From Halomicronema hongdechloris C2206 (GTDB lineage: Bacteria; Cyanobacteriota; Cyanobacteriia; Phormidesmidales; Phormidesmidaceae): a stretch of DNA of 32,000 bases. Positions 5,814 to 22,863 of the stretch are shown here, piece by piece; position 1 is the first letter of the stretch; each line of letters starts with the position of its first letter. The translations under genes were made by a program, and so were the position numbers. The DNA lies in NCBI RefSeq assembly GCF_002075285.3, contig NZ_CP021983.2:3840001-3872000 (forward strand). The letters run 5' to 3'. The notes beneath the pieces are model-generated. The model saw nothing but the letters and a program-made list of their open reading frames with translations, ran no database searches and was not told where the DNA came from.

Positions 5814-6142
5814 CTCTCATAATTGGAAGAGCTTCATCTGGGTAGTGTTTGTTCCATCGGTATTTGCATTCTGCTGATGGATAACAGGCATGAGCGTACA
5901 AATGCTGAGCTCCCATATGCTCAATCTGCGAAACCCTTTGCATCTCAAGCACTGTTGATAGCTCATTACCACTAGTAGGTACCGATTCAGTTTGGTTCAC
6001 AGAAATGGCAAAAAATCTGATGTGGCTTCATGAGTGCATCACTTCAAACCACCGACATTGAATGATATGTAGCTCGGGAGCTCCAGCAATCAAACTGTTG
6101 CAATAAAGGCTATTGACCCTACATCACTACTGGAGAACTAAA

Positions 6143-6495: not shown

Positions 6496-9390
6496 ATGAA
6501 GCATGCATCTTCCATCCTCATCCGCAGCATTTTCACTTCATTGTTCCTGCTTGGGGACTTCACTGCAGATTTAGCGCTAGCCAACGAGCCGCCAGCTATC
6601 TTGGCCAGTCATCGAAGTCAGCTTCAAAGTCAGCTTCCCTCGCACCTGACGATGCGCCTGCCTGCTGATAGTTGGCTACAGGAGTTGCTCACCTCAGAAG
6701 AGGATTACTCTGTTCACATATTTCCTGCATCAGCAGAGTCAGGCCTCGCCATTGGACTGTTTACTTGCGATGACATTTCTCCAGACTGTCTAATTGCTAG
6801 CTTTTCTACCCTGGAAGTATCCTCTCCGACTGCTCAAGCAGCATTGCAACAACATCAGGCAGCTGCAGCTCCCATTACCCTTGCCCCTGAAGCGCGAGGG
6901 TATTTGTTGGATGGGTCGAAACTCAGCCCACAGGCTGAACTTTCTTCAGTTGTTTGGGTGCAGGATAACCAGCTTTACGCGGTGCGATTCCCTGCAGACG
7001 TTCGCCAAACGGGATTGTACCTGGCACACTCAATGGCGATTGCCCCACCCCTGTCAGGCATCAGTACTATTACAGAGACTGCGAACGCTCCCACCGAAGA
7101 ATCTGAAGTTACAACTAGAAATCAAATTATCGAGCTATCCTCCGGTGGATTGGCAGCCTTGGCGGAAGCATTAGCCCAACAGTTGCCAGCCGCTGTATCC
7201 ATGAGGTTACCTGAGCGAATGCTATCGCTAGAAACCACAGCAAATGATGAGGCCAACTATCAGCTCGAAGTAATTCCCACAACGACGTCAGATACTTTAA
7301 CAGCGAGTATATTTACCTGCCGAGCCACCACACCAGATTGCTTCCTGGGGCATTTTTCAGCCAGTGCGGGGACGTCGGCAGCAGCAGAGGACTTACATCG
7401 GCAGCATCAGGAGCAAGGAAATTCAGTTACGCTTAGCAGAGAAATTACAGCCTATGTTTTGGAGCTAGTTGAGGGAGATGCCTTTTCGCCCTTGGTGTCG
7501 GTGATGTGGCAGCAAGATAGGCAATTTTATAGGCTCCAGTTTCCGGTGCAAGCGCGGCAAAATATGCTGTTCACGGCACTGTCTATGATCAAAGGGCCGA
7601 TAGTGGTTTCGGCCCATTCAGAGCCTGTAGCTGTCACTGCTGATAATGGGCGCGGGGATGAGTCGTTGTCTTCCATTCCTGAGGAACCGGCCCCGCTACT
7701 GCAATTGCAGGAGGTAGAGACGGCGGCTATCAGTGATAGCACTGCCCAGGCATTACCTCCAGATTCTGTGTCTCCAGATGCTTCCGAGGAAGCAGTGCCT
7801 GCCCCCGCTTCAGAGGCAGAGCCATCATTACTCGAAAGGGCAGAGATTGAAATTCGTGGTGTTGAAGTAAAGGGCAGCACGATCTTTGACAAGATTGACT
7901 TCCAGCCTATTCTTGAGGAAGCGGGGATACATCCCAACTTACTGGAGAATGAAACTCAAACCGTGAATTTGCCGCAGTTGATTAATGTGGCTAACGGCAT
8001 TACACAACTCTATGTGGACCAGGGCTATATAACTTCTCAGGCGATTCCCCCAAATCGAGACAACTTTCCTGACGTTTCAGAGAATGGAATTGTCTATCTG
8101 CAGGTAATTGAGGGACAGTTGGGCGAGATTAACATTCAGGGCACAGAACACTTACAAGAAAGCTATGTCCGTAGTCGGCTGGAATTAGGAGTGACATCGC
8201 CTCTACGAATTGATCGCATTGAGGAACAACTGCGGTTGTTGCAGGTGGACCCCAATCTGTCTGCTGTTGAGGCAACGCTCAAACCGACAGGTACCCTTGG
8301 GTTGAGTAATCTGGAGGTGACGGTAGAGGAAGCCCCGACCTTTGTGGCAGGAATTTCAGTCGATAACTATTCGCCACCCAGGGTTGGTAGTGAGCGGACT
8401 GGAATTGACGTGGCGCTTCGGAACCTGGCTGGGTGGGGCGACTCGCTCTCAGGCTCCTATTTTCGATCCACGACGGGCGGAGCAGAGGTCTTTGATTTCC
8501 GATATACGGTGCCTTTAAACGCCATGAATGGAACCCTACAGTTTCGAGCTGCGCCGGAGCGCAATGAAGTGACCCTATCCGATTTCAGGGAGTTGGGGCT
8601 GCGGGGGGAGATTGAGCGCTACGGTGTGCAGTTACGGCAACCCGTGATTCGATCGCTCAATGAGGAGCTAGCGCTATCGTTAGGCTTTACGTTTCAGGAG
8701 GGGCAGACTTTTGTGTTTGACCAGGAGCCCGCTCCCTTTGGTATCGGCCCGGATGAAGATGGGGTGAGCCGGACCAGTGTCTTCACCTTTAGGCAAGAAT
8801 ACGTTAGCCGAGACAGTTTCGGAGCCTGGGCATTGCAGTCTCAGTTTAATTTTGGTACCGGATTATTTGAGGCCACGGCAAATCCCTCGTCGATTCCGGA
8901 TGGTCAATTCTTTAGCTGGTTGTTTCAGGCCCAGCGGCTGCAGCGTCTGAGTGACAAGCATTTGCTGGTGATTGGAGCCGATGTGCAGTTGACACCGAAT
9001 ATGCTGCTGCCGGCTCATCAGTTCACCATTGGCGGGGGGCAATTGGTGCGCGGCTTCCGGCAAAATGCTCGTTCTGGGGATAATGGCTTTCGTTTCTCCA
9101 TAGAAGATCGCATTACGGTGACGCGGTTGCCATCTGGTGTGCCGGAAGTCCAGCTAGCCCCGTTTGTCGATATGGGGATGGTGTGGAATACGGCAGGGAA
9201 TCCGAATATTTTGCCAGAGCAACGATTTCTGGCGGGTGTGGGCATTGGTGGCATTTGGGATTGGTTTTTGGGGATAGAGCGACTAAGTGTCCGGCTGGAC
9301 TACGCCTTGCCGCTAATTGATTTAGAGGATCGCGGTAACAACGCTCAAGATTCCGGCTTCTATTTTCGCGTGAATTATCGGACTGAATAG
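6496..9390 (+). CDS. ShlB/FhaC/HecB-family two-partner-secretion transporter (TpsB, Omp85 superfamily) with a long duplicated N-terminal extension
   Basis: Signal peptide present. POTRA-like segment EIRGVEVKGSTIF...LYVDQGYITSQAIPP...VYLQVIEGQLGEINIQG. The C-terminal barrel carries the conserved GGGQLVRGF motif and ends in F-rich beta strands (FYFRVNYRTE). Confidence 0.9.
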   Translation: MKHASSILIRSIFTSLFLLGDFTADLALANEPPAILASHRSQLQSQLPSHLTMRLPADSWLQELLTSEEDYSVHIFPASAESGLAIGLFTCDDISPDCLIASFSTLEVSSPTAQAALQQHQAAAAPITLAPEARGYLLDGSKLSPQAELSSVVWVQDNQLYAVRFPADVRQTGLYLAHSMAIAPPLSGISTITETANAPTEESEVTTRNQIIELSSGGLAALAEALAQQLPAAVSMRLPERMLSLETTANDEANYQLEVIPTTTSDTLTASIFTCRATTPDCFLGHFSASAGTSAAAEDLHRQHQEQGNSVTLSREITAYVLELVEGDAFSPLVSVMWQQDRQFYRLQFPVQARQNMLFTALSMIKGPIVVSAHSEPVAVTADNGRGDESLSSIPEEPAPLLQLQEVETAAISDSTAQALPPDSVSPDASEEAVPAPASEAEPSLLERAEIEIRGVEVKGSTIFDKIDFQPILEEAGIHPNLLENETQTVNLPQLINVANGITQLYVDQGYITSQAIPPNRDNFPDVSENGIVYLQVIEGQLGEINIQGTEHLQESYVRSRLELGVTSPLRIDRIEEQLRLLQVDPNLSAVEATLKPTGTLGLSNLEVTVEEAPTFVAGISVDNYSPPRVGSERTGIDVALRNLAGWGDSLSGSYFRSTTGGAEVFDFRYTVPLNAMNGTLQFRAAPERNEVTLSDFRELGLRGEIERYGVQLRQPVIRSLNEELALSLGFTFQEGQTFVFDQEPAPFGIGPDEDGVSRTSVFTFRQEYVSRDSFGAWALQSQFNFGTGLFEATANPSSIPDGQFFSWLFQAQRLQRLSDKHLLVIGADVQLTPNMLLPAHQFTIGGGQLVRGFRQNARSGDNGFRFSIEDRITVTRLPSGVPEVQLAPFVDMGMVWNTAGNPNILPEQRFLAGVGIGGIWDWFLGIERLSVRLDYALPLIDLEDRGNNAQDSGFYFRVNYRTE

Positions 9391-9425
9391 AACGGGCTGA
9401 ATTGCACAGTTAGCGACAGGATCTA

Positions 9426-9431
9426 AAGGAG
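9426..9431 (+). promoter_or_regulatory. Shine-Dalgarno-like AAGGAG, 7 nt upstream of the TpsA ATG
   Basis: Read directly. It supports the start at 9439 over the internal Met at 9484. Confidence 0.6.
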
Positions 9432-9438
9432 CAACGTC

Positions 9439-12400
9439 ATGGGTTACGCATCACCACAGACAGAGAACACTACTGGTTTGATAATGCAGCTGGGCCGACT
9501 AGGTATCCAGGCATTGTTGGTGGCGTTGCCGATGACTGGGCTATGGGTGGGGGGATTGCCTGGCTTTGCTCAATCCATTATTCCGGCAGCGGATGGGACA
9601 GCCACGATCGTGACGCAGGATGGGGAGCGCTACATCATTGATGGCGGCACCTTGTCAGGTGATGGCGCGAATCTGTTCCATAGCTTTCAGGAACTGGGGC
9701 TGTCAGCGAATGAGATTGCCACGTTTTTGTCTGACCCGACGATTCAAAATATTCTGAGCCGGGTTATCGGAGGTGATCCGTCGATTATTGATGGGCTGTT
9801 ACAGGTGTCGGGAGGTAACTCGAACCTGTTTTTGATGAATCCGGCGGGGATTGTATTTGGCCCAAATGCTCGGCTGGACTTGTCGGGGTCGTTTAGTGCG
9901 ACAACAGCAACAGGCATTGAGTTTGCTGAAGGCTGGTTTGATGCCATTGAGGCAGGTGACTTTACGACCCTGACGGGAAACCCTATCGCGTATCGGTTTG
10001 GGGTGGGGGAACCGGGGGCGATCGTCAATGCCGGAACGCTGGCGGTTGAGCCTGGGCAGGGAGTGTCGCTGGTGGGCGGCACGGTGATCAATACGGGGAC
10101 GATTGAAGCTCCGGGGGGACAAATCACGGTAACGGCGGTGCCAGGGACCAGTCGAGTGCGGTTGCAGCAGCCGGGATGGGTGGTGGCGCTGGAGGTGGAT
10201 GTGGCGCTGCTGGCAGAAAGTGGCGCGTCGGCCATTGCCCCATGGGATTTGCCGAGGCTGCTGACCGAGGGAGCACCGGGCATCGAGACGGGATTGGTGT
10301 TGGCGGCGGATGGCTCGGTGCAGTTGGCGGAGTCCGGGGTGATGGTGCCGAGTGGAGGGGCGACGAGCATTGTGTCGGGGCAATTAGATGCGGCGAATAG
10401 AGCGTCGGGACAGACCGGGGGTGAAATTGCGGTTTTGGGCGATCGGGTTGGCTTAGTCGGTGCTGAGGTAGATGCATCGGGCGATGCGGGTGGTGGTCGT
10501 GTGCTGGTGGGGGGTGAGTTTCAGGGCAACGGGATGTTGCCAAATGCAGAGCGGACGTATATAAGTGAGGATTCGAGCATTCAGGCTGATGGAGGGACAA
10601 CAGGTGATGGGGGCGAAGTGATCGTTTGGGCGGATGAGGTGACAAGATTTTATGGGGGGATTAGTGCCCAAGGTGGGAACGAATCGGGTAACGGTGGATT
10701 TGTCGAGGTATCAGGTGCAGAAACTCTGACGTTTCGAGGAGAAGTTAATACGAGTGCTCCAAACGGGGAAGCCGGGACGTTGCTACTAGACCCTGAAAAT
10801 ATTGTGATTGTCGATGGAGCGGGAACTGATGATGGTCAGATTATTGATGGCGAAATACTGGCTGGAGATGGTCCTAGTGATACCTTCACAATTTCAGAAA
10901 TTGCTTTAGAAAATTTAGGGTCAGATACCAATGTCATTTTAGAAGCAACTAATGATATTACTATTAACGATTTGACCGATGATGCTTTAGCGTTTTCGGA
11001 AGGCCCTGGTGGTTCAATAATTTTTAACGCCGGCAATGATTTTATAATGCTTGATATAGAAGGAGATAGCGTTTTTGCAGGAGGCATTTTAGGAGAAGGT
11101 GATCAAATCGTTGCCTTTGATCGCAACATTTCAATTTCTGCTGGTGGAGATGTAATTATTGGTACGATAAATACGCTTACTCCTTCAGCTTTTCCTTCAA
11201 CTAATGATGCTGGTTCTATCAATGTTAGTTCTGAAAATGGAAGTATTGCTGTAAATATATTAGACAGTCGGTCTCCTGATGGAAGCGGAGGTGAGATATC
11301 ACTTGATGCATTTGGTGACATTACTGTCAATAACGCAATATTTTCACTCGGAGTTTTTGATGGAGTTGGAGGAGACGTCACTATAACTAGCCGAGCTGGT
11401 CAAATAAGCATCCCCCGCCTTAATACCCGTGGAAGTGCATCTGCTGGAAATATATTTGTTTCTGCACTTGGTGATATTGCAATTGATGATACTGCTGCTG
11501 CACCAGCTAATGCTTCAGCAGATAATGTCGGTGGCAACGTCGAAATCTTCAGTGAAGAGGGAAATATATTCATCCCAGATGGTATTTCCTCAAGTTCCAG
11601 TAATGGCGATGCTGGCGATATATCTATTATTGGCCTTAATGGATTTATTAATATTGATACAGGAGAAATAAATTCAAGTTCTCTGAACGGTGAAGGCGGC
11701 AATATACTAATACAAGCTTTGGGAAATATTACAACTTCTGACGTCACTTCTCGAATCCCTGTCGAAGACAATAACGGTCTCCCAAATCTAGGCACTGGCA
11801 CTGCAGGTGATATCACAATCAGAAGTCTTGCAGGTTCGATTGACACAACTAATCAAACCAACTTTGCAGGCATTGATGCGCGATCTAACAGCGGGCAGGG
11901 AGGCAACATTATTCTCGAAGCTGCAGGGGATATCAGAACGGCTGATGTGGCTTCGTGGATTAGCATCACTAACAACGGCAGCGGCACAGCAGGCGACATT
12001 TTGATCAGGAGTTTGAATGGGGCTGTCGATACCACTGCTCAGGTCAATGATGGGGTCTTGGCTAACTCCAATAACGGCACCGCAGGCAGCTTAACCATTG
12101 AAGCGGCAGGCGATGTCCGAACAGGTGATATTGGCGCTTCCATTGCAGATACCAATAACGGTAGTGGCTTTGCAGGTACGGTGACCGTCAGAAGCGCAAA
12201 CGGATCAATCGACACGAGGGCCGGTAATGTCGCTGCTCGCAGTCAAAACGGCACTGCTGGCAGCGTCACCCTTGAAGCCGAGAATGGCAGCGTCTTCACG
12301 AGTGATATTGATGTTGATGGTTTAACTGGAGGTGACCTCAGAATCATTGCCGAAACCGCGATTACCACTCTGGAGCTCGATACGAGCGGCTCCACTGGCA

Positions 12401-14316
12401 GCGGCGGCAATGTCTTCCTAGATCCGTTAGAAGACGTAGAGGTCTCATTTATTGATGCTCAAGGGGGACTGGCAGGTGTTGGCGGCGAAGTTGATATCAC
12501 TACCGGGCGTTTCTTTCGCGCTACTGGCACCTTCATCGACCAAAATGGTATTGAAGCAAGCATTTCTAGTGCTGGAGGCCAAGGTGGCGGGCCGATCACC
12601 ATTCGTCATGGAGGTGGCTTACAGGGAACTTCCTTTGACGTTGGCGATGCCACTGTTAATGGCACTGCCGGAGCAATCACTTCCGCTGCTGATAACGTCA
12701 TTGCGCCCACTCAGTCTTTCCCCACGTCTTACACGCAGGGCAATATCCGCATCCTCACCCCTTCCCCCAACGTGGTTGAAACTCAAACCCAGCCTGCTAT
12801 CCCAGAGGTGACAGATCCTGAGTCTCCAGCCGCCAAACTGGTGGCGCAAATAGAGACAGTTCTCACCTCAGATGTTCAAACCTACTTTGGACGCACAGGC
12901 GAAGATACGCCGATCAAAACCCTCAGCGTGATCCAAAGTGAACTCAACCGGGTAGAGGCACAAACCGGTTCCGTAAAACCAGCGGTGATTTATGCCTTTT
13001 TTGTGAATTCTCAAATTGATACCGAGAGGCTTGCCGAAATTGTCAACAAGAATCCTCAACCTTCCGGGCAAGTGGAAGAATCGCCTGATATCCAATGGCG
13101 ATACTCTTCTGACCGACAAGGCACCGCTTACTCTACCATTAGCCCCTATGTCTCTCAAGCGGAAGAAGTCTCTGAAAAATTGGTGTTAATGGTCATCACT
13201 GCCGATGGTCCGCCAAAACTGTTCCCTACCGAGGTTACCTTTGAGCAAATTGATTCTGCTGTACAAAATCTCAATGCTCAACTGAGTCAGGATTTTGGCA
13301 GCGATCGCTGGGAACCCCATGCCCGCTCCATGCATAACTATTTGATTGAGCCCATCGAAACCATGCTTGAAGATCAGGGCATCAACAACTTACTCTTCGT
13401 CATGGACGCCAATCTCCGGCATCTTCCTTTAGCGGCTTTCCTCCCAGGTAATGATAATGATGATGCGATCAGCGATTTGCAAAGTGATGCAGAAATCGCC
13501 AGCAGACTCCGCTCAACTCCGTTGTCGCTGCTCAAGAGTGCTGATGGTCGCTACCTAATCGAAGATTACAGCGTCGGCTTAGTCCCTAGTATGAGTCTGA
13601 CCGATACTCGCTATCGAGATGTCAGCCAAGATCCCTTTCTGGCGATGGGAACCGATGATTTCTCTCAATCCGAAGATCGGCTCAGTGCTTTGAAGGGAGC
13701 TCGTACCGAAATTGAGTTCCTAGAAACCATCTGGCGTGGAGAAGTCGAAGTACCTGATCAGGCAGAGTTCACGATCGGCAACTTACAGTCCTTGTTGCAG
13801 CAGCAAGATTTTCGCATCGTTCACTTGGCAACCCATGCTCAGTTCAAAGACAGTGAAGCCCATAATTCGTACATTCACTTCGCGGGAACGGAGCGGCTGT
13901 TTCTAGATGAGTTGCCTACGACATTAGACTTGCATGACATTGAGCTTCTAACCCTGAGCGCCTGTGAAACAGCCCTCGGCGACAGAGAAGCTGAACTGGG
14001 ATTTGCTGGGCTAGCATATCAAGCCGGTGCCAAGTCAGCACTAGCTAGCCTAGTACAAGTTTCAGACGTGGGCACGGCAGCACTGATGGCTCAGTTTTAT
14101 ACCAACCTCAGTAATGCCCCCATCAAGGCTGAAGCCTTGCGAGAGGCCCAACTTGCTATGTTAAACAGGCGAGTCTATGTCCAAGAGGGGCACATCTATG
14201 GTGAGGGGTTAGAAGCGGGTTTTCCGCTTCAGGAACCTCTAACAGCCTCTAGCTATCAAAGCTTTGAGCATCCCTATTATTGGGCTTGGTTTACCGTAGT
14301 CGGCAGCCCCTGGTAG
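9439..14316 (+). CDS. Two-partner-secretion exoprotein (filamentous haemagglutinin N-terminal TPS domain + beta-helical repeats) with a C-terminal CHAT caspase-like peptidase domain
   Basis: Signal peptide present. TPS-domain motifs NLFHSFQELGL and NPAGIVFGPNA. GGFVEVSG...GTLLLDPENIVIV. Degenerate repeats of about 58-68 aa span roughly 11695-12320. CHAT dyad: VHLATHAQF (His codon 13834-13836) and LTLSACETA (Cys codon 13963-13965). Confidence 0.9.
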   Translation: MGYASPQTENTTGLIMQLGRLGIQALLVALPMTGLWVGGLPGFAQSIIPAADGTATIVTQDGERYIIDGGTLSGDGANLFHSFQELGLSANEIATFLSDPTIQNILSRVIGGDPSIIDGLLQVSGGNSNLFLMNPAGIVFGPNARLDLSGSFSATTATGIEFAEGWFDAIEAGDFTTLTGNPIAYRFGVGEPGAIVNAGTLAVEPGQGVSLVGGTVINTGTIEAPGGQITVTAVPGTSRVRLQQPGWVVALEVDVALLAESGASAIAPWDLPRLLTEGAPGIETGLVLAADGSVQLAESGVMVPSGGATSIVSGQLDAANRASGQTGGEIAVLGDRVGLVGAEVDASGDAGGGRVLVGGEFQGNGMLPNAERTYISEDSSIQADGGTTGDGGEVIVWADEVTRFYGGISAQGGNESGNGGFVEVSGAETLTFRGEVNTSAPNGEAGTLLLDPENIVIVDGAGTDDGQIIDGEILAGDGPSDTFTISEIALENLGSDTNVILEATNDITINDLTDDALAFSEGPGGSIIFNAGNDFIMLDIEGDSVFAGGILGEGDQIVAFDRNISISAGGDVIIGTINTLTPSAFPSTNDAGSINVSSENGSIAVNILDSRSPDGSGGEISLDAFGDITVNNAIFSLGVFDGVGGDVTITSRAGQISIPRLNTRGSASAGNIFVSALGDIAIDDTAAAPANASADNVGGNVEIFSEEGNIFIPDGISSSSSNGDAGDISIIGLNGFINIDTGEINSSSLNGEGGNILIQALGNITTSDVTSRIPVEDNNGLPNLGTGTAGDITIRSLAGSIDTTNQTNFAGIDARSNSGQGGNIILEAAGDIRTADVASWISITNNGSGTAGDILIRSLNGAVDTTAQVNDGVLANSNNGTAGSLTIEAAGDVRTGDIGASIADTNNGSGFAGTVTVRSANGSIDTRAGNVAARSQNGTAGSVTLEAENGSVFTSDIDVDGLTGGDLRIIAETAITTLELDTSGSTGSGGNVFLDPLEDVEVSFIDAQGGLAGVGGEVDITTGRFFRATGTFIDQNGIEASISSAGGQGGGPITIRHGGGLQGTSFDVGDATVNGTAGAITSAADNVIAPTQSFPTSYTQGNIRILTPSPNVVETQTQPAIPEVTDPESPAAKLVAQIETVLTSDVQTYFGRTGEDTPIKTLSVIQSELNRVEAQTGSVKPAVIYAFFVNSQIDTERLAEIVNKNPQPSGQVEESPDIQWRYSSDRQGTAYSTISPYVSQAEEVSEKLVLMVITADGPPKLFPTEVTFEQIDSAVQNLNAQLSQDFGSDRWEPHARSMHNYLIEPIETMLEDQGINNLLFVMDANLRHLPLAAFLPGNDNDDAISDLQSDAEIASRLRSTPLSLLKSADGRYLIEDYSVGLVPSMSLTDTRYRDVSQDPFLAMGTDDFSQSEDRLSALKGARTEIEFLETIWRGEVEVPDQAEFTIGNLQSLLQQQDFRIVHLATHAQFKDSEAHNSYIHFAGTERLFLDELPTTLDLHDIELLTLSACETALGDREAELGFAGLAYQAGAKSALASLVQVSDVGTAALMAQFYTNLSNAPIKAEALREAQLAMLNRRVYVQEGHIYGEGLEAGFPLQEPLTASSYQSFEHPYYWAWFTVVGSPW

Positions 14317-14350
14317 AGATGAACCGCTGTGCGAAAGCTCGCCTCTCCGT

Positions 14351-15103
14351 CTAGTTGCTTTCACACAGCTCGGCATAGATTTGGTTTGTGTAGGCATCTT
14401 TTTCAGCAGATTGGCTGAGGTTAAACAGCTCCTGTACGGCATCAGCAAAGAAGTAGGTTTCGCTGTCCGCTCCGGCTGCTGTAATACCACTACCCGGAGT
14501 GTAACTATGGCTAGAAAAGTAGTCTATTCTTTGCCAGGTCAGCGAGTCCCGGTCACTTGAAGCCGATCCACTAGATAAATCGTTCAATGCTGTTTGAACA
14601 TTCTGCCATTCAGCTTGGGGAAGAAGCTGGAACGGTACGGCAAATGGCCTGTCCCCACCTCCATAGATTTCAAAGTAGTATTCTTCTCCAGGCGACAAAT
14701 TTTCCTTGTCATAGGCTATAGAGTGCAGGGTTTGAGCATCTGCATCTTCTGGGATGGATACCGTGTCACTCCATCTAACGTCGTTGACAGTCTCTCCTCT
14801 CACCTGAACTCGCAGCTCGCCTTCGCCACCGAACCAAACAAATAAAGGCTGGTGATGCCAAATGTAGCCACCGTCAGGTGTGATTACACAGATAGGGCCT
14901 CGCGTACTTCCCCCGCGCGACCGTCTAAAAATCTTATCGATGATTGATTGGCTTTTCTCTTGTTGACCGTCAAAATTCAGCACCTGAGAAACTGGAGTGT
15001 TCCCGAATGCTGATTGACTAAAAACGCCTGCCAACATTGCTCCGGTCGCTGGTAATAAGACTGACAGCAATAGTCTTTTTGAATGAGTCCGTAGTAAACG
15101 CAT
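14351..15103 (-). CDS. DUF928-family secreted protein
   Basis: Signal peptide present. An RSRGGSTRGPIC motif followed by PLFVWF matches the remembered DUF928 pattern (R-GGGxRG-C then PTFFWY). Its ATG overlaps the stop of the upstream gene by 1 nt. Confidence 0.65.
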   Translation of the reverse strand: MRLLRTHSKRLLLSVLLPATGAMLAGVFSQSAFGNTPVSQVLNFDGQQEKSQSIIDKIFRRSRGGSTRGPICVITPDGGYIWHHQPLFVWFGGEGELRVQVRGETVNDVRWSDTVSIPEDADAQTLHSIAYDKENLSPGEEYYFEIYGGGDRPFAVPFQLLPQAEWQNVQTALNDLSSGSASSDRDSLTWQRIDYFSSHSYTPGSGITAAGADSETYFFADAVQELFNLSQSAEKDAYTNQIYAELCESN

Positions 15104-17610
15104 CAGAATATCCTCCGGGTAATAGGTCCTAAGTAGTTCAGTAAAACAGTCAAAGGGAATAGAACCGGCAGCAAAACGGGCACCGAAACATAAAGCTGTA
15201 GGCTGAGTAATCCATAGCCAGTGATCGCGAAGAAAGCAGTGCGAATCAATTTTTTGCGTTTCGCCCGTGGCTGTTTCTGTAGCGCTAAAACAGTGCCTTT
15301 GCCCAAAAAGATGGCTAATCCCGTCATTAAATAGTTGGGTACAACTCTAACCTGGTGTCGCTGCAAGAGTTGAGAGGTCATATAGGCATGGAATTCTGAG
15401 CTACTGAAAGACCTGGGCTGATATGCACAGCTTTGTCGTGTCCCCTGGTTTGAGTCCTGGGTATTAGGTCGATTAAGTGATAAACACCACCAATACTCTA
15501 TAGCCAATGGTGGCGAATAGTTATCTTCGGCATCGGCATAGTCACCAGAGCCAATGATGAAAACCTGATCAGAAGATTGCGCAGTTGTGTCAGCATCCGA
15601 TGAACTCTCTTCCAGTAAATTAGAGGCCAATGTTCTTTGATAAAAAAAACTAGGTGGTAGCGAAAAATCGATAATAGATTGCCAACCCAAAAAAGATTTA
15701 TTCTGATGTATGAAGCTTCTTGATTGTTCGTTTTCGGCCAGTACAGTATTGGTTAAGGCGATCACACTCTTACAAAAATCATTACCAACATTTTCAATCT
15801 CTTGATCGCCGACCGCCTGATCCACTTTTTGCCTGAAACTTGTTATATTTGCCGTCGCAGGACTGGCATTTAGACTGTGTGATAAGGCCATCAAATAGCC
15901 GAAAGGGCACAGCTCCTCTAAATCGCTATCGTCTGGGGTGTCAACATCCCATGTGTAGAAGTTAGCGTCACTTCTTAGACTGACTTCCAGTTGTTGTAGC
16001 TCATCGAATACCTCAAGGTTCCGGTCTGAACTTGTTGGTACGACGAACCAGCTACCCTGCTCTCGTGACACTTCTCTCATGGTGTCGAGCAGTTGAGAAG
16101 AACCTGCATCAGGATCATCTAATAAATATCCAATGCCAATCGTTTTCGGCTGATAAAGGGAGACTTCATCAACTAGCTCGGCGATAAAAGCTTGGGGCAT
16201 CGGTTCCGCTTCGGTAATACCAGCCATATCTAACGCCCGTTGATCTATCGCGATTAAATGGACGGGCGGTACAGCATCTTCAGCCATTACTGGAACTTGT
16301 TGGGTTATGTCTCGATAAACTGCCTGTAGTGCAACACGCACTTCAACTAGCACATCTTGAACAACGGGTACGGCACCTAACAGCAGCACCGCTCCCGCAG
16401 TGGTTAGCTCCCGCTTGGTGGGTAACCACTTCCTCATCTGCTGCCGCCAAACGTACGACTTGATGCGGTACGGCAGCACCCTTGGTGGGCTGAATAATGA
16501 CGGCACCAGATGAGCCGACGGAAACTTGATATTCTCTGCCGACCTTAGCACCTCGCAGGTCTGCATCATTGCTGTGTGGGCATCTTGATACTCTCGGAGC
16601 CGCTGACAAAACTGGGTCAGAAATTCCTGAGCTGCATCATCGTGAATCTTCTCCCGCATCACGATCGCTTGAATACCTGACCGAGTCAGCGACTGGGCGA
16701 TCGCCAATCCTGAACAGGAATTGAACACTGCTAGCCTTAGCCCCTGACGCTGGGCTGTTTCCAAATGCTCTCGAATGTCATTGACTGACAGACTGACCAT
16801 CGGCGTTAACTTAAACGTGCCACTGGTATTTTCCTGGTCACTGCTATGGCCAGTAAAGAAGAGAACGTCCCATCCGCGATCATCCGCGATCGCCTCAAAT
16901 ACCTTGCGAGTAATGACATGGGGCGCATCCTCTGGCAACCACTTGGCTTTTTTGACATCGGCAACCGGGCGCAAGCCTCGGATGATTTCCCAATCCCCAT
17001 CTACGTCTAGGTGATTATCCTCAGCCACAATGGCTAAAACTCTTGGCTTTTTGAGCGATTCCGGTGGCGGCTGTCCGGCTAATCCTTGAGGGTCATCCCT
17101 CGCTGTGCGAATCACCCGAATTGAGTTGGACGGCAATCCCTGGGGTACGAGCCTTCTGGCCCATGCTTCCCAAGGGAGTTGCTGCAAGCGGCTATCTCCA
17201 CAGGCCAGAAAAACATTCACACCCAACGGCATGGAGGACTCTTCCTCACTGGTTTGAGAAACCTCCAGTAAGGCCGTTTGCAACTGTCGCTCGATTGAGC
17301 GAGTATCCCCAGCACCCAGCCAATCTAGAAAAGTCGTGGTCAGTATATCCTCAGCATTCCTGACCGCCGCTGACGGATCGCCATTAGGACGTACCGAAAA
17401 GGTACCGCTACGAGTCACTGGCTGTTCCGATTGCAGATGATAGTATCTCAGGTACTGCCGCTGCCAACTCTCATAGTCCCGCTGCAGCCTGCCCAGAAAG
17501 GGTTGACTAGCAAACAGATCACGCTTTCCCTCATCCCAGACCAGGTAAAAAACGCAGGAGCCATCGTCCTGAGAGAGTACCTTCAAATCAAACGTTACTT
17601 GCCTCGCCAT
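15103..17610 (-). CDS. CHAT peptidase domain (N-terminal, cytoplasmic) fused to a CHASE2 extracytoplasmic sensor with 1+3 transmembrane helices
   Basis: CHAT dyad in DVLFFTGHSSD (His255) and LAVFNSCSGLA (Cys299). First TM helix around residues 401-417. CHASE2-like motifs VHLIAIDQRALDMAG, TIGIGYLLDD and VFIIGSGDYADAEDNYSPP. Three C-terminal TM helices follow, and the protein ends right after the last one. Confidence 0.8.
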   Translation of the reverse strand: MARQVTFDLKVLSQDDGSCVFYLVWDEGKRDLFASQPFLGRLQRDYESWQRQYLRYYHLQSEQPVTRSGTFSVRPNGDPSAAVRNAEDILTTTFLDWLGAGDTRSIERQLQTALLEVSQTSEEESSMPLGVNVFLACGDSRLQQLPWEAWARRLVPQGLPSNSIRVIRTARDDPQGLAGQPPPESLKKPRVLAIVAEDNHLDVDGDWEIIRGLRPVADVKKAKWLPEDAPHVITRKVFEAIADDRGWDVLFFTGHSSDQENTSGTFKLTPMVSLSVNDIREHLETAQRQGLRLAVFNSCSGLAIAQSLTRSGIQAIVMREKIHDDAAQEFLTQFCQRLREYQDAHTAMMQTCEVLRSAENIKFPSAHLVPSLFSPPRVLPYRIKSYVWRQQMRKWLPTKRELTTAGAVLLLGAVPVVQDVLVEVRVALQAVYRDITQQVPVMAEDAVPPVHLIAIDQRALDMAGITEAEPMPQAFIAELVDEVSLYQPKTIGIGYLLDDPDAGSSQLLDTMREVSREQGSWFVVPTSSDRNLEVFDELQQLEVSLRSDANFYTWDVDTPDDSDLEELCPFGYLMALSHSLNASPATANITSFRQKVDQAVGDQEIENVGNDFCKSVIALTNTVLAENEQSRSFIHQNKSFLGWQSIIDFSLPPSFFYQRTLASNLLEESSSDADTTAQSSDQVFIIGSGDYADAEDNYSPPLAIEYWWCLSLNRPNTQDSNQGTRQSCAYQPRSFSSSEFHAYMTSQLLQRHQVRVVPNYLMTGLAIFLGKGTVLALQKQPRAKRKKLIRTAFFAITGYGLLSLQLYVSVPVLLPVLFPLTVLLNYLGPITRRIF

Positions 17611-18944
17611 TATGACTCTCCCGCGTCATAGGTGAGCGGGGGTAAGGCAAACGCTGTTTCACCGGGAGCAATAATTTCCACGTTCAGGACTTCTCCGACT
17701 CGGGCATCTACAGAGCTGTACACCAGCACTTCCTCGAATTCCAGATCAACAGCCTCTAAGAGATCCATTTCCCGACTGATTTTTAACTGTAGCCCCGCTG
17801 GTAACAGGCGATCGCTTTGAGACCCCACAATGACCAGCAATGACCAGTCAATCGCAGCGTCTGAGGCTGTCTCTAATGCTACCGGAGACCGATAGGGCAG
17901 CAAACACAGACACAAATCAAGTTCTTCTAGTTCAACATTCCGATACAGGGGACGAATAACTTCGGGAATAAGCAATCCGTCTTCCCGTAATGTGGCGATT
18001 GCCCCTTCAAACACTTCTGATAATGGCTGCGATTTCATAGCAGAGGCAAATTGCAATTGACTTCCTGTTAAGAAACCGAGACTTTGAGCCACCTCATCCA
18101 GCCCCGACTCTAACCACTGGCCGACATCGATCACGCTTTGTCTGGCGGCAGCCACCGCAGTTTGAAGACCTTGGCTTTGGCGATCACTTTGGGCAGGCTG
18201 CTGCCAGCAATGAAATTCAGCCCGGAGTGCTGGTGATGTCAAAATAGCGGCAGCCTGCTCCCAGGTCAACTGTTGCCAGAGCGGATCGGTCATAGAAACG
18301 TCTGCCAAAACTTGCTGCAACTCAGGCACCGCCATAGTGGCAGAACTTGTGGCTAAATCTCTCTCAGGCAATGAGAGAGTTGCGATGTCAAGCTGCTCAG
18401 CATAAAACACTAAGCGACTGGGCTCCTGTTCAAAGAGAGTCAGGGGTACGCGATATACCCAGTCGTCATCCGCTTCCAGGTTCATCGATTGTCGATAGTC
18501 TTGAAAGCGATCGCAGCGCAGCACACCTCGAAAAATCAATTCCTCATGTTCTTCAATCACTTCTACGACTAGACAGAAGTGAGGGATAAACTCAGGGAGC
18601 TCCACCGCCGCTTGAGGAATCTTGACCACTCCATCGATAATGCTTTCCGTGGCAATCAGGCACGCCCTAAAGGGGCCAATGGCAAGGCCGCAAGTCCCAT
18701 TTAGCAAACCCGCATAGCCAGGTTCAAAAAGCGTACTCTGTTCAATGTCGACCGCTCGTGTTCTCAGACGGTTTTGCAGCGATCGCTGTAGACCCAAAAC
18801 CGCCAACCCTTGCAAGTAGAGATCCCACTGCAAATTCTCGGTTGGGGCTAATTGACTATTCTGGCTAGCCCGCTGAATGTCCTCAAGCTCCAAAAGAATC
18901 GTCTCAGGATTGAGAAGTGTAGTGTCGCTAGTGGTATCAAACAT
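17610..18944 (-). CDS. DUF1822-family protein
   Basis: 444 aa with no TM helix or signal peptide. The N-terminal WDLYLQGLAVLGLQRSL and central KIPQAAVELPEFIPHFCLVVEVIEEHEELIFRGVL match the remembered DUF1822 pattern. Its stop overlaps the downstream ATG by 1 nt. Confidence 0.7.
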   Translation of the reverse strand: MFDTTSDTTLLNPETILLELEDIQRASQNSQLAPTENLQWDLYLQGLAVLGLQRSLQNRLRTRAVDIEQSTLFEPGYAGLLNGTCGLAIGPFRACLIATESIIDGVVKIPQAAVELPEFIPHFCLVVEVIEEHEELIFRGVLRCDRFQDYRQSMNLEADDDWVYRVPLTLFEQEPSRLVFYAEQLDIATLSLPERDLATSSATMAVPELQQVLADVSMTDPLWQQLTWEQAAAILTSPALRAEFHCWQQPAQSDRQSQGLQTAVAAARQSVIDVGQWLESGLDEVAQSLGFLTGSQLQFASAMKSQPLSEVFEGAIATLREDGLLIPEVIRPLYRNVELEELDLCLCLLPYRSPVALETASDAAIDWSLLVIVGSQSDRLLPAGLQLKISREMDLLEAVDLEFEEVLVYSSVDARVGEVLNVEIIAPGETAFALPPLTYDAGES

Positions 18945-18968
18945 GGTGATTACTTTCCTTAAATATAT

Positions 18969-20462
18969 TTATGACTCTTGTAAGAAGCGGCGTAGTTCAA
19001 CTGCATAGAGGCTGTCAAACGAACGATCCTTATTGGGCTTTTGCAGTTCCTGGAGCGCCTCGTCAAAAACCTCTGCATCAACCAGCAGCTCCAACTGCTC
19101 CATCAGGTTGCTCAAATAGTTTGGTTGGGGGGGAATGGCCGTCAATCCCATTTCATTGGCACGAACCAAAATAATATCCAGCAACTTTTCGAGCGTGCGA
19201 AAACGGACCTGGTGAATCAGTTCCTTGAGGGCCAGCACCCGAGCTACCAAAGGCTGGTTAGGAAAACTAAGGCGTTCTTGGATCGCTCGTTGTGAGAGCC
19301 CCTCTTGATAAATCAGCCTCAGTCCAGGGATGAGCTTGGAGGCATGCGCTTTACGGCGGCTCTTGCGGATTTCAGTGAGGCGATCGTCGATGCCCTGCTG
19401 AATTCCATACTGCAGGGCGTAAAGCTGTTGTTCGCGAATGAACTGCAAAATGTCCTCGTATTCCAGCTTTTCAGGTTCATTGACGACTGTCGAAGCAATG
19501 TCTCTCCGCTCTGTCGGTAGCCCCGTTTCTGGATCAGGCAGTTCAATCGGCTCAGCATTAGGGCGGCCCTGCCGTATCCACGCATCAATTTCTTGCAGTT
19601 CTTGCGCTACTTGCCGAAGTTCTTCCAATAAAATTTTTGGAGACTGAATTGTGATGTCGAGTTCTCGCAATTGATCCAACATCTCTCCTAACTGAAAATT
19701 TGTCGGGTCTGGACACTTTTTGGCTCTTAAACTTTTGCCATCCCGCTCCCGTTGCTTGAGGCGATCGCGACGATACACAGCCTGAAAGACTTCGACTAAA
19801 TGGCGCGATCGTTGAGATAACCATTTGAGTTGAGCAGACCGCGCTCGATTCATCAGCGCCCAATTGCTTAGTCGCTGAAAGCCCACTTCACTAAGAACGG
19901 TCTTAAGCCGCTCGTGATAGCGCGTCACATAATAGGCCCAGTTCGATAGGCTTTTGCGACCAGGGCTTTGGTAGTTGTAACCACTCAGGACATCAGCACC
20001 AAAGAAGCGGTAAGGCTCTGACTGTGATTTGTCAGAACGGTTTAGTAAACAGTATTCCTCGTTGTCGAATAGCCAAAGGGTCAAGCCATCATCATCTAAG
20101 ACGGCGGATAAAAGCTTTTGGAAGGTGTCTTGTCTGTTGGCTGTTCCGGCAAAGGCGCTGGCCTGATCCTTGCAGGCTTGTAGAATTGAGGGCGAGATGT
20201 AGCACCGTAGGCATAGTCCAGCTCCGGCTCGACGCTCCCTGGACTGAGAGTCGTCGGCAAACAGACTAAACAACTGCACCTGAATGGATACATCCTCATC
20301 TCCACCATTGAGCAAGATCTCGTTTTGACCTGCTAAGAAGTCATCCCACACAGTTTTGGCACGGGGAGACGGCCAAGACTCATACCCCCGCCTGACGGTT
20401 CCAGGCAAGCTACCTGGAGACGGCAGACGATAAATCTTTTGATAGCGGAGTAAATCACCCAT
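18969..20462 (-). CDS. Large divergent sigma-70-like / HTH regulator (region-4-like C-terminal module)
   Basis: LIPGLRLIYQEGLSQRAIQERLSFPNQPLVARVLALKELIHQVR resembles sigma region 4 (LxYxEGLSxxEIAxxLGxSxxTVxxRxxRA). SLSNWAYYVTRYHERL is weakly region-2-like. A GAGG lies 7 nt before the ATG. It is the first gene of the minus-strand operon. Confidence 0.5.
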   Translation of the reverse strand: MGDLLRYQKIYRLPSPGSLPGTVRRGYESWPSPRAKTVWDDFLAGQNEILLNGGDEDVSIQVQLFSLFADDSQSRERRAGAGLCLRCYISPSILQACKDQASAFAGTANRQDTFQKLLSAVLDDDGLTLWLFDNEEYCLLNRSDKSQSEPYRFFGADVLSGYNYQSPGRKSLSNWAYYVTRYHERLKTVLSEVGFQRLSNWALMNRARSAQLKWLSQRSRHLVEVFQAVYRRDRLKQRERDGKSLRAKKCPDPTNFQLGEMLDQLRELDITIQSPKILLEELRQVAQELQEIDAWIRQGRPNAEPIELPDPETGLPTERRDIASTVVNEPEKLEYEDILQFIREQQLYALQYGIQQGIDDRLTEIRKSRRKAHASKLIPGLRLIYQEGLSQRAIQERLSFPNQPLVARVLALKELIHQVRFRTLEKLLDIILVRANEMGLTAIPPQPNYLSNLMEQLELLVDAEVFDEALQELQKPNKDRSFDSLYAVELRRFLQES

Positions 20463-20730
20463 AGTTGAGCCTCATACTCATTTCAACTGCGTTGCGCGAT
20501 CGCTTCGTGAGTCATTCAGTGCAACCACGATGAACTGATTCAGTTACAACCCTACTGCTCAAAAAACAGATCACAAAGTCTTCGTTACCAAGCTTTAGAT
20601 GAGCAATTGAAGCGGCCAATATATGAATAATTCGATGACTTTTGCATAACTGAATCGCTGCCTAACCTCCAACCTGATGAATGGTCAGAGCCACTCAGAA
20701 CGGCTGTCTAAATTCACAGAGGTATTTGTT

Positions 20731-22863
20731 ATGGGCTTCAAACGTTCTGGAATCCATGAAATCGATTCTTTATTAAAAGGAAAATACTGGAATGACACGG
20801 GTAAGCCCGTTACCCTCACCTACAGCTATGACGTGACCGGAAAAGACGGTCTAAACAGAGAGCAGAGAGACATGATCTTTGAAGCTCTAAACCAATGGCG
20901 AAAAGTAGCCAATATCAACTTCAACTGGGTGCCAAAGGGGGGGGATCTTCGATTTAAGGCAGAGGATATTCCGGGAGGAAATGTTGACTACAAGGAAGCT
21001 GTTGACTGGTGGAATCCCTTTAGCTACGGTACCAACAAGCTTAAGCACGTCAATATCAAGCTTGGGAAAAATTTAATCACGGGAAAAGGTAACGATTTCT
21101 TAGAAGTTGCTCTGCATGAAATCGGTCATGCTATTGGATTGAAGCATCCAGGCCGATATGACGGTGATAAAAGTAAGGGTGAAGGCCCATTTTTGGCTTA
21201 TTCCCAAGACCACAATACCAATACTGTCATGTCTTACAACCACGCAGGCTCTCTTGCAGTTACCCCTATGCCCTACGACATCAGGGCAGTGCAGTACCTA
21301 TATGGTGCTAGAAGTTTCAACCCATTTAATACCCGCTATAAATTCAGCACTATCCATAGTTATAAAAGCGAAGATTCCAGAGTGGAATTTCGGGGTCGCG
21401 ATGACAAGGTCATGAAACTGACTATCTGGGATAGTGGTGGAGAAGATACTCTCGATTTTTCAAAGCTTGCTTTTGCTCCCGATGGATATCATCTTGATAT
21501 TCGTGAAGGAGGAATTCTTGCCACCAAGTTCAACCTAGAAAAGGACGCATTTGGTCAGTATTACGCCAGAGACAATACTAAGGATACGAAATACAGCGAC
21601 CATCAGTATCGGGCCGCAAGTATTGGCACGGCGATTGCCTACGGTACTCATATCGAGAACGCCATTGGTACTTCGAGCTTCGACGAAATCATTGGAAATG
21701 GACGTTCAAATCGTATAGAGGGTAAAGGCGGTAACGACATCATCAAAGGCGGTGGTGGTAGCGATACTGTATACGGTGACTCAGGCAATGATCGCATCTA
21801 CGCTGACGGTGGTCATGACAAAGCCTATGGAGGTTCAGGAGATGACTTTATTGCCGGATGGTACGGCAATGACTATCTCAGCGGTGGTTCTGGCAGCGAT
21901 CGCATCTATGGCGACGACGGTCATGATACAGTCTACGGCGGTTCAGGTAACGATGTAATTTGGGGTGAATCTGATAATCCTAATCTCAACCGCAAGTTTG
22001 GTGCTGGTAACGATAAGCTCTACGGTGGTACCGGCCATGATGAAATCCATGGTGGCAAAGGCAATGATTTAATTAACGGCGACTCTGGTAATGACAAACT
22101 CTACGGCAATTACGGCGACGACCGAATCTATGCCGGTCGTGGCGATGACAAAGTTTATGGTAGTTCAGGGGATGACTTTATCGCAGGCTGGTACGGCGAC
22201 GATTATCTCAGCGGTGGATTTGGCGATGACCGCATTTATGCCGATGATGGTGACGATGTTGTCCGCGGTGGGTTTGGCGACGACATTATTTGGGGAGAGT
22301 CAGATAACTACAAGCTTAATCAGAAGTTTGTGGGGGGTAATGATGATTTGAGTGGCGAGTATGGTCACGACAAAATCTATGGTGGTAAAGGAAACGATAG
22401 TGTCAAGGGTGGTGCTGGCAATGACAGGCTATACGGCCAGCAAGATCATGACACCATTGATGGTGGTAGAGGCGAGGATTACCTGAGTGGCGGTTCTGGC
22501 AACGATATTCTGGTGGGCGGAGATGATGATGATGTGCTGAGAGGGGGAACTGGTGCTGATATGTTTCGCTTCTCCTCCCTTCGACACGGAGTTGACCAAA
22601 TTCGAGACTTTACTCAGGCACAAGGTGACAAGCTACAGATTGTTACTAGTGGTTTTGGCGGTGGCTTAGTTTTAGGACTCTTAGATGCTAGTCAATTTGT
22701 TTTGGGTTCAGTTGCGACTAATGCGAGCGATCGCTTTGTTTACAACCAAAATACAGGTTCTCTCGCCTTTGATGTTGACGGTTCTGGCAGTCAAGCTGCT
22801 GTTCAATTTGCCAATCTAGCTATAGGGCTAAATTTAAGCGCCGGCGATTTCGTCCTTGTGTAA
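20731..22863 (+). CDS. Serralysin-like (M10B metzincin) zinc metalloprotease with RTX calcium-binding nonapeptide repeats
   Basis: HEIGHAIGLKHP (HExxHxxGxxH) with Met-turn TVMSY. Dozens of GGxGxD/GxDxL repeats. C-terminal tail ...GDFVLV (acidic residue plus hydrophobics), as in type I secretion substrates. The ATG at 20731 (GAGG upstream) is preferred over 20677. Confidence 0.88.
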   Translation: MGFKRSGIHEIDSLLKGKYWNDTGKPVTLTYSYDVTGKDGLNREQRDMIFEALNQWRKVANINFNWVPKGGDLRFKAEDIPGGNVDYKEAVDWWNPFSYGTNKLKHVNIKLGKNLITGKGNDFLEVALHEIGHAIGLKHPGRYDGDKSKGEGPFLAYSQDHNTNTVMSYNHAGSLAVTPMPYDIRAVQYLYGARSFNPFNTRYKFSTIHSYKSEDSRVEFRGRDDKVMKLTIWDSGGEDTLDFSKLAFAPDGYHLDIREGGILATKFNLEKDAFGQYYARDNTKDTKYSDHQYRAASIGTAIAYGTHIENAIGTSSFDEIIGNGRSNRIEGKGGNDIIKGGGGSDTVYGDSGNDRIYADGGHDKAYGGSGDDFIAGWYGNDYLSGGSGSDRIYGDDGHDTVYGGSGNDVIWGESDNPNLNRKFGAGNDKLYGGTGHDEIHGGKGNDLINGDSGNDKLYGNYGDDRIYAGRGDDKVYGSSGDDFIAGWYGDDYLSGGFGDDRIYADDGDDVVRGGFGDDIIWGESDNYKLNQKFVGGNDDLSGEYGHDKIYGGKGNDSVKGGAGNDRLYGQQDHDTIDGGRGEDYLSGGSGNDILVGGDDDDVLRGGTGADMFRFSSLRHGVDQIRDFTQAQGDKLQIVTSGFGGGLVLGLLDASQFVLGSVATNASDRFVYNQNTGSLAFDVDGSGSQAAVQFANLAIGLNLSAGDFVLV

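Follow-up and report, generated by a model that had tools for sequence, protein, structure and literature searches.

A compact, fused variant of a conserved cyanobacterial cluster linking a caspase-CHASE2 operon with a two-partner secretion pair in Halomicronema hongdechloris

The genome of Halomicronema hongdechloris C2206 contains, within a stretch of 32,000 nucleotides (nt; contig NZ_CP021983.2, positions 3,840,001 to 3,872,000; the whole of this stretch is hereafter the window), two operons that converge on one another. The first encodes a two-partner secretion (TPS) pair, composed of a TpsB transporter and a TpsA exoprotein that ends in a caspase-like CHAT protease domain. The second encodes a sigma-like protein of 497 amino acids (aa; SIG is used here for both the gene and the protein), a DUF1822 protein, an inner-membrane protein that joins a caspase module to a CHASE2 domain, and a secreted protein of 250 aa. 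The gene arrangement of this locus far exceeds chance. Many cyanobacteria, most of them filamentous, conserve a cluster of which this locus is a fused, compact variant, and the locus is interpreted here with moderate confidence as a single envelope-spanning module that operates along the lines of the working model set out below. An initial annotation of the window had proposed that the two operons constitute one system, which passed the check for conserved co-localisation, the composite being present in three contigs and TPS genes being enriched near DUF928. The same annotation knew of no description of such a module; its core had in fact been given in silico by Kaur et al. (2021; PMC8195603). 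The components of the two operons are listed by window coordinates and strand.

6496..9390, plus: TpsB-type outer-membrane transporter, 964 aa (Pfam ShlB, POTRA_2 and Omp85)
9439..14316, plus: TpsA exoprotein, 1625 aa, with signal peptide, TPS domain, Gly-rich beta-helix repeats, linker and C-terminal CHAT protease
9601..10176, plus: TPS secretion domain of TpsA, residues 55-246 (Pfam TPS, E 1.9e-40)
13318..14307, plus: CHAT domain of TpsA, residues 1294-1623 (Pfam CHAT, E 1.7e-61)
14351..15103, minus: secreted 250-aa protein in the DUF928 position, with a signal-like N-terminus at about 15002-15103
15103..17610, minus: inner-membrane protein with EACC2-like, caspase (CHAT) and CHASE2 parts, 835 aa (Pfam CHAT, E 5.1e-10; CHASE2, E 1e-8)
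15313..16293, minus: CHASE2 domain, residues 440-766, predicted periplasmic (Pfam and hydrophobicity)
16441..17049, minus: caspase-like core, residues 188-390 (alignment and catalytic dyad)
17050..17610, minus: constant N-terminal EACC2-like module, residues 1-187 (46-sequence alignment)
17610..18944, minus: DUF1822 protein, 444 aa, cytoplasmic (Pfam DUF1822, E 2.9e-27)
18969..20462, minus: sigma-like helical DNA-binding protein (SIG), 497 aa (100% identity to XM38_036580)
19230-19328, minus: region-4-type helix-turn-helix (HTH) of SIG, about residues 379-411 (family profile)
19938-19994, minus: weak sigma2-like motif of SIG, residues 157-175

The six open reading frames (ORFs) of the initial annotation were reproduced exactly, as were the 34-nt gap between the convergent operons (14317-14350) and the 1-nt stop/start overlaps that join the last three minus-strand genes (at 17610 and 15103). 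The labels given to TpsB, TpsA-CHAT, CHAT-CHASE2 and DUF1822 were all matched by Pfam. The tpsB and tpsA genes are separated by 48 nt, and a terminator scan reported no terminator-like site in the 34-nt gap.

Conserved linkage and shared upstream motifs

A comparison seeded with SIG, for which the genome scan was run with a 17-sequence alignment, yielded 79 genome loci, all of them cyanobacterial, and all of their ORFs were clustered without reference to the window. DUF1822 lies directly downstream of SIG on the same strand in about 75-76 of the 79 loci. The genes that follow this pair vary, with an EACC2-caspase-nSTAND1-WD40 protein in 23 loci, CHAT-CHASE2 in 23 and TPR-CHAT in 17. DUF928 occurs in 18 of the 79, nearly always adjoining the CHAT-CHASE2 gene, and in two loci (L003 and L024) a TPS gene directly follows DUF928 on the same strand.

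The second comparison was seeded with DUF928, independently of SIG, and comprised 80 metagenome loci that were dereplicated at 80% identity to 31. CHASE2 is encoded immediately upstream of DUF928 in 51/54 loci, and the caspase is included in 46/54. Among the 31 dereplicated loci, the neighbours of DUF928 include CHASE2 (29), TPR-CHAT (23), DUF1822 (21), TPS (18) and TpsB (9, a count limited by the 10-kb flank). The presence of TPS genes in 18/31 of these loci compares with 2/27 in the background (Fisher p=6e-5, odds ratio 17). Among the contigs of this comparison (L082-L161) the same accession series recurs, for example JAESGY, JAESGF and JAESFT with three loci each, which suggests multiple paralogous clusters per genome or community.

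From these loci a canonical array, common around DUF928 genes, can be described, in which a small ECF-like sigma protein of ~216 aa is followed by DUF1822, EACC2-caspase-CHASE2, DUF928 and TpsA, and is accompanied by TpsB followed by TPR-CHAT. The array is either convergent or fully co-directional (the latter in L094, L117 and L119), and its TpsA proteins end without a CHAT domain. The small sigma carries Sigma70_r4_2 and a signature resembling sigma2 of the extracytoplasmic function (ECF) factors; its sole match in the PDB is the sigma2 region of the ECF factor SigK (E 0.37). The order found in Halomicronema differs in its parts: long SIG, the 444-aa DUF1822 protein, CHAT-CHASE2 and a protein of ~250 aa converge on TpsB followed by TpsA-CHAT. 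This composite was found in three independent contigs, namely L081 (Logan), L163/L164 (ENA) and L165 (a Tara scaffold), and is maintained at 25-69% protein identity, with SIG identity reaching down to about 41%. In L081 the identities to the window are 69% for SIG, 59% for DUF1822, 65% for CHAT-CHASE2, 39% for TpsA and 30% for the small protein. TpsA orthologues are present in L081, L163 and L165, that of L165 being 1743 aa in length with both TPS and CHAT domains, and L165 also encodes a TpsB orthologue (E 5e-264).

Upstream sequences provide a further layer of conservation. In the canonical clusters a promoter-like motif of the pattern TGTAA[CA]-N10-GTTT[TC]GCATAAA, also seen in the form TGTAAC-N10-GTTTYGCATAAA, was matched 27 times, compared with 2 in shuffled sequence. 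In at least 12 loci it lies shortly upstream of the gene for the small sigma; it also precedes TpsA genes in L092, L095, L097 (both TpsA genes) and L122, and a divergent PAS-AraC regulator gene. Most regions upstream of TpsB genes consist of coding sequence. Examples of the motif among L090-L122 are L094 5772-5799 and L097 9804-9831 and 13839-13866. This pattern would correspond to an autoregulated ECF-type regulon that includes TpsA, and the sharing of the motif by sigma and TpsA genes fits a sigma factor that drives the TPS genes.

The long-SIG loci have an element of their own, AACTGCATAAG[C/T]T, which precedes SIG in 49/89 upstream regions at a fixed distance, about 76-90 nt in most. The sequence AACTGCATAAG recurs before DUF1822, EACC2-caspase-STAND, GerE-HTH and TPS genes (126 matches, compared with 33 in shuffles), and it precedes the GerE gene in four Moorena loci. 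The local version in the window is the palindrome AACTGAATCAGTT, which matches the long-SIG element at 10/13 positions and is kept at about -80 from SIG in L081 and L080. Allowing up to three mismatches, AACTGAATCAGTT has 18 matches in the window against 8.8 expected. These include a copy with one mismatch at 22921-22933, between the stop of an M10-RTX gene and an I36-like ORF, and a further copy at 31304-31316. The exact palindrome and a tentative copy are located as follows.

20533..20545, no strand assigned: palindrome AACTGAATCAGTT, exact, ~83 nt upstream of the SIG start
5980..5992, no strand assigned: tentative copy of the palindromic core with 2 mismatches, in the divergent intergenic region between DUF4114 and TpsB

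Properties of the encoded proteins

The CHASE2 domain of the 835-aa protein lies between two hydrophobic segments, at residues 404-422 (16345-16401) and 806-824 (15139-15195), so that the N-terminal caspase module should be cytoplasmic and CHASE2 periplasmic, in agreement with the topology originally proposed. The caspase core holds a catalytic dyad of H255 (16846-16848, within FFxGHS) and C299 (16714-16716, within FNSC), both invariant in 46 relatives. Ahead of this core, nearly all full-length relatives possess a module of ~230 aa, regardless of whether the C-terminus is CHASE2 or nSTAND1-WD40, and the core starts at about residue 225-255 whatever follows it. Conserved aromatic residues in this module are common to the CHASE2 and nSTAND-WD40 relatives, and the 46-sequence alignment gives W49, Y53, W97, P146, W147 and W150 as its conserved positions in the window protein. 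From the architecture and from published operon strings, we infer that the module is the EACC2 of Kaur et al. (2021).

That in silico study describes EACC2-caspase proteins with variable C-termini, CHASE2 included, associates them with TRADD-N proteins, an ECF sigma factor and DUF1822, and proposes a stimulus-induced activation of the autopeptidase with a transcriptional step (Kaur et al. 2021). In its supplement, proteins of the DUF1822 family are labelled TRADD-N+TPRs, a Fischerella operon combines a CHASE2-caspase with a beta-rich transmembrane (TM) protein and a TPR-caspase, and Haemagg_act genes appear in one operon string. Its tables annotate one protein of the TPR-CHAT type as SIG+TPRs+CASPASE, where SIG is read here as signal peptide. 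The published string EACC2+CASPASE+CHASE2+TM+TM matches the architecture of the 835-aa protein, whose constant N-terminal module and caspase are followed by a variable C-terminus that is here CHASE2 with TM helices, and the adjoining DUF1822 and HTH/sigma-like genes match the canonical cluster. The window differs in having a 497-aa sigma-like protein in place of the small ECF-like one, a CHAT domain fused to TpsA, and a non-DUF928 protein in the DUF928 slot. The core of sigma factor, DUF1822/TRADD-N and EACC2-caspase-CHASE2 is thus already described in silico, and the TPS link is not discussed in the text of that study: term searches of its main text returned no mention of hemagglutinin/TPS, POTRA or DUF928, on which section 9 is also silent (Kaur et al. 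2021). Searches of the literature for a connection of CHAT to CHASE2, to hemagglutinin or to two-partner secretion came back empty, and neither another paper linking these families nor an experimental study of the cluster was found. A survey of WD40 proteins reports a CHASE2/DUF928/WD40 cluster in Nostoc punctiforme, and cites the acid-stress induction of Sll1891, a DUF928 protein of Synechocystis.

TpsB and TpsA resemble the partners of classical TPS systems (FhaB/FhaC, ShlA/ShlB and CdiA/CdiB). In TpsA, a signal-like N-terminus and beta-helix repeats accompany a TPS domain whose NPNGI-like motif reads LFLMNPAGIVFG; the protein also matches the NCBIfam model adhes_NPXG (E 5.6e-22). Its Gly-rich repeats coincide with a segment of the window (10001-11000, 56% GC) in which the GC skew is very high (0.39). 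The adjoining TpsB has POTRA_2 (E 2e-9), a ShlB barrel (E 7e-27) and Omp85 (E 1.5e-12). Unlike in the classical pairs, TpsA terminates in a CHAT protease of the caspase-like type, tpsB precedes tpsA, and the two genes form part of a conserved cluster that also encodes a sigma-like regulator and a sensor-protease of the inner membrane. TpsB additionally bears, ahead of its POTRA domains, an N-terminal extension of ~450 aa (6496-7850, residues 1-450) that contains two internal repeats of ~200 aa, with the motifs ...FTCDDISPDCLIASFS... and ...FTCRATTPDCFLGHFS..., and that has no Pfam match.

The CHAT domain of TpsA has its dyad at H1466 (13834-13836) and C1509 (13963-13965), invariant in 19 aligned sequences. 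Both His/Cys dyads reported in the initial annotation are intact, relatives do not routinely lack them, and both domains have the conserved dyad of CHAT/clan CD caspase-like peptidases and are putative proteases. The TpsA CHAT domain belongs to the same subfamily as stand-alone TPR-CHAT proteins of ~900 aa, the homology being confined to the CHAT domain. The N-termini of these proteins show a conserved basic-then-hydrophobic stretch ending in AxA-like motifs, a signal-peptide-like arrangement that suggests a periplasmic site of action rather than the display or release of CHAT proposed in the initial annotation. In large TpsA proteins, FhaB and CdiA among them, the C-terminal portion remains periplasmic, at least transiently. 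By analogy, the CHAT protease probably acts in the periplasm, the simplest reading common to these observations. As the protease is a separate protein in other clusters and is fused to TpsA in the window-type loci, TpsA and the CHAT protease would be expected to work together.

The 250-aa protein had been labelled as a periplasm-targeted DUF928. Its N-terminus is indeed signal-like, with a hydrophobic segment at residues 11-29, and its gene occupies the place held elsewhere by DUF928, directly downstream of the CHASE2 gene with a 1-nt overlap; membership in the DUF928 family did not hold in any profile test. The protein has no Pfam or NCBIfam match, even at E 10. It was tested by profile-sequence and profile-profile comparison with 12, and then 77, true DUF928 proteins, and also with a 5-sequence query profile. 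Against DUF928 profiles (PF06051), hmmsearch --max gave -1.4 to 0.7 bits, and hhalign reached only E 0.018-0.078 over 17-43 columns. True DUF928 proteins from related loci score E 2e-58 in Pfam. Because the profile tests are negative, the DUF928 slot is occupied and the N-terminus is signal-like, the protein is a positional analogue of DUF928. It has one close homologue only among 5.8 billion clustered proteins, and the copies in L081 (7574-8296), L163 (13803-14609) and L165 (4428-5177) are 25-30% identical, compared with 59-69% for the operon neighbours in L081. The small protein thus diverges faster than its neighbours, and such fast evolution of a small periplasmic component could reflect diversifying selection or relaxed constraint.

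The sigma-70-like label given to SIG is weakly supported. A region-4-type HTH and sub-threshold matches to sigma folds were found. In a PDB profile search the family profile matches HTH segments of ~40 aa only (DeoR HTH, E 3e-4; SigF region 4, E 0.36), and hhalign gave a weak match to region 4 of Escherichia coli RpoE (E 0.04). Region 2 shows a weak in-register motif match to the small ECF-like proteins (E 0.026). The confident AlphaFold model of SIG (pLDDT 86.5) gave weak top matches in Foldseek, mostly SigB and SigA chains (E 0.035 to ~1), none of them significant. An exhaustive profile search recovered full-length family members only, with no bridge to canonical sigma factors. The family was met in cyanobacteria only: the GTDB species genomes gave 320 genomic relatives, and clustering at 50% identity about 736 clusters. 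A sigma-like identity is plausible for the 497-aa protein. In one family member of 951 aa (P0167) the full sigma-like module is preceded by a fused AAA_35 (STAND-like ATPase) domain. Neither SIG nor DUF1822 has hydrophobic segments.

A single-module model and its rivals

The model builds on the observed gene content, domains, predicted topology, dyads, conserved linkage and shared upstream motifs. TpsB would export the beta-helical TpsA. A classical CHAT protease would act in the envelope, either fused to the C-terminus of TpsA, as here, or as the signal-peptide-bearing TPR-CHAT protein co-transcribed with TpsB elsewhere. The CHAT protease, the secreted ~250-aa protein in the DUF928 slot and the CHASE2 domain would then share one compartment, probably the periplasm, where CHASE2 would sense a change such as a secretion state, surface contact or an envelope cue. 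CHASE2 would activate the cytoplasmic EACC2-caspase module, which may cut itself or the DUF1822 (TRADD-N/TPR) adaptor and so change the activity of the adjacent sigma-like protein, and the latter would control its own operon and the envelope genes of the cluster.

A more specific and rather improbable version of this model would have two proteases act as a relay across the inner membrane, forming a bacterial caspase cascade that is organised like signalling from death receptors and ends in transcription. A surface event reported by TpsA would activate the periplasmic CHAT domain tethered to the TpsA C-terminus, and CHAT would process the small secreted protein. CHASE2 would read the product or its loss and turn on the EACC2-caspase, which would cleave the TRADD-N-containing DUF1822 protein and free the sigma-like factor.

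Signalling through ECF sigma factors by regulated proteolysis or from the cell surface is familiar from RseA/sigmaE and FecA-FecR-FecI. As in those systems, outer-membrane and periplasmic parts would be connected through an inner-membrane transducer to a cytoplasmic sigma partner, with an autoregulated promoter motif. The transducer proposed here differs from RseA in having a cytoplasmic caspase-like protease rather than being an anti-sigma factor cut by DegS/RseP-type proteases. Similarly, the sigma partner is DUF1822/TRADD-N and not a ZAS or RskA-type anti-sigma, and the outer-membrane part is a TPS pair where FecA is a TonB-dependent transducer. Precedent for CHAT-gated sigma control exists in the Craspase of type III-E CRISPR, composed of gRAMP/Cas7-11, the TPR-CHAT protein Csx29, Csx30, Csx31 and RpoE, where likewise a TPR-CHAT-type protease is genetically linked to an ECF-like sigma factor and a partner protein. 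In the present clusters, by contrast, the TPR-CHAT relatives carry signal peptides and would be periplasmic, the cytoplasmic protease being the EACC2-caspase. The window has no gRAMP-sized gene, no Cas domain among the scanned ORFs and no CRISPR-like array; its large ORFs are all assigned to families other than gRAMP/Cas7-11, and a tandem-repeat scan found nothing relevant. A PDB sequence search with the TpsA CHAT domain returned no Csx29 match, and the corresponding TPR-CHAT profile search was swamped by generic TPR matches.

Several observations weigh against the single-module model. TPS genes occur within 10 kb in only about 8 of the 79 long-SIG loci, and in Moorena (L016, L022, L030 and L073) and Leptothermofonsia (L162) a reduced variant lacks DUF928 and TPS genes, with the order SIG, DUF1822, CHAT-CHASE2 and a ~100-aa protein, plus a 190-aa GerE/Sigma70_r4_2 HTH protein. 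The SIG/DUF1822 pair hence does not need TPS, many pairs being joined with EACC2-caspase-nSTAND-WD40 instead. The claim that the sigma-like protein drives the TPS operon draws on the canonical clusters and the motif common to their sigma and TpsA genes; in the window, no sigma-type motif or palindrome lies directly before TpsB, and the small-sigma motif was not found. The palindromic copy at 5980-5992 is 504 nt from TpsB and 167 nt upstream of the DUF4114 start, and so is closer to DUF4114. Scans of the locus for generic sigma-70 promoters and terminators yielded matches at the level expected by chance. The sigma identity of SIG is itself weak: there is no Pfam or NCBIfam match, permissive thresholds included, and no Sigma70_r4, and the best Foldseek match (SigB, E 0.035, probability 0.95) does not reach 1e-3. 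The DUF1822 model, made from 8 homologues, has a pLDDT of 53, and its Foldseek matches to generic beta-sandwiches are uninformative. The 250-aa protein is not demonstrably DUF928. Finally, the sensing and proteolytic steps, the substrates and the direction of signal flow are inferred.

A somewhat unlikely alternative, following Kaur et al., is a system for countering invaders or for programmed cell death, in which the proteases would kill or arrest the cell or its neighbour upon invasion or damage, DUF1822/TRADD-N would be a death-adaptor-like switch, the sigma-like protein a transcriptional arm, and TpsA a surface receptor or delivered toxin instead of a product under regulation. Published placement of the family among conflict systems enriched in multicellular bacteria (Kaur et al. 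2021) accords with this, as do the varying C-termini on a constant EACC2-caspase module, the several paralogous clusters from the same assembly accession series, the fast evolution of the 250-aa component, and the STAND NTPase and transposase fragments in the flanks. However, the invariant gene order and conserved promoter-like motifs resemble a housekeeping signalling operon rather than a shuffled defence island, and this analysis gave no sign of toxicity. PADLOC 2.0 returned no defence-system match and has no model for any component; the six focal proteins gave only a marginal BovA match (E 7.7e-4) without a qualifying stretch, and the flanking STAND protein a generic TPR match only. The mechanism also overlaps that of the single-module model, and differs mainly in output.

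It is doubtful that TpsA-CHAT acts as a polymorphic-toxin-type effector that is secreted or delivered by contact, its toxic tip being CHAT and the minus-strand operon having only a regulatory or immunity role. The TPS domain, long beta-helix and C-terminal enzymatic domain do mirror a CdiA-like architecture, and the adjoining small secreted protein could be an inhibitor. Yet CHAT is in most related clusters a separate exported TPR-CHAT protein with its own signal peptide and no TPS domain, beside TpsA proteins that lack it, and therefore does not behave as a variable tip; this disfavours the toxin reading. Moreover, CHAT is conserved with an invariant dyad and not polymorphic, and the small-protein gene is downstream of CHASE2, not of TpsA.

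That a TPS pair and an unrelated EACC2-caspase/sigma operon are neighbours by accident in a variable region is highly improbable. In favour of this reading, the convergent operons do not have to be co-transcribed, there are transposase fragments nearby, and most long-SIG loci have no TPS genes. The comparative data largely refute it, through the same juxtaposition in three other contigs at 25-69% protein identity, the enrichment of TPS, TpsB and TPR-CHAT beside CHASE2-caspase/DUF928 in differing gene orders, and the promoter-like motif common to sigma and TpsA genes.

Flanking genes and biological significance

Divergent from SIG is a further protease gene.

20677..22863, plus: serralysin-type M10 + RTX protease (Pfam)

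This position is conserved in the nearest relatives only: L080 has an M10-RTX gene divergent from SIG whose product is 37% identical, and L081 has an RTX gene in the same place. The protease may be targeted locally by the system or act as its partner. After this gene and a hairpin, an ORF of 149 aa (23032-23481) has a weak match to the peptidase inhibitor family I36. Upstream of the locus are an NB-ARC/STAND NTPase with TPR repeats (1603-4164, 853 aa), a gene of conflict-system type, and a DUF4114 protein (4284-5813, 509 aa) encoded divergently from TpsB. The right flank (23873-24496, 25459-25980, 27225-27851 and 27918-28754) contains transposase fragments (ISL3-like and DDE_Tnp_1-like), a Uma2 endonuclease-like gene and an aminoglycoside 3-N-acetyltransferase. 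In L080, too, many transposase genes lie near SIG.

To our knowledge, no experimentally known function attaches to DUF1822/TRADD-N, EACC2-caspase-CHASE2, DUF928 or its analogue, the long sigma-like family, or CHAT-linked TPS pairs. Among the multi-gene neighbourhoods of filamentous cyanobacteria the cluster ranks with the more conserved, and the finding is more general than the sequence of the window alone could show, with the TPS link as an addition to the core described by Kaur et al. (2021). Testable predictions follow from the fusion of TpsA with CHAT and from the shared promoter motifs, namely the compartments in which particular proteins would meet and the promoters that would respond. 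If the model is true, bacterial caspase homologues outside type III-E CRISPR would acquire their first physiological role and their first substrates; control of a sigma-like factor would take a new form, as would the coupling of a secretion system to transcription.

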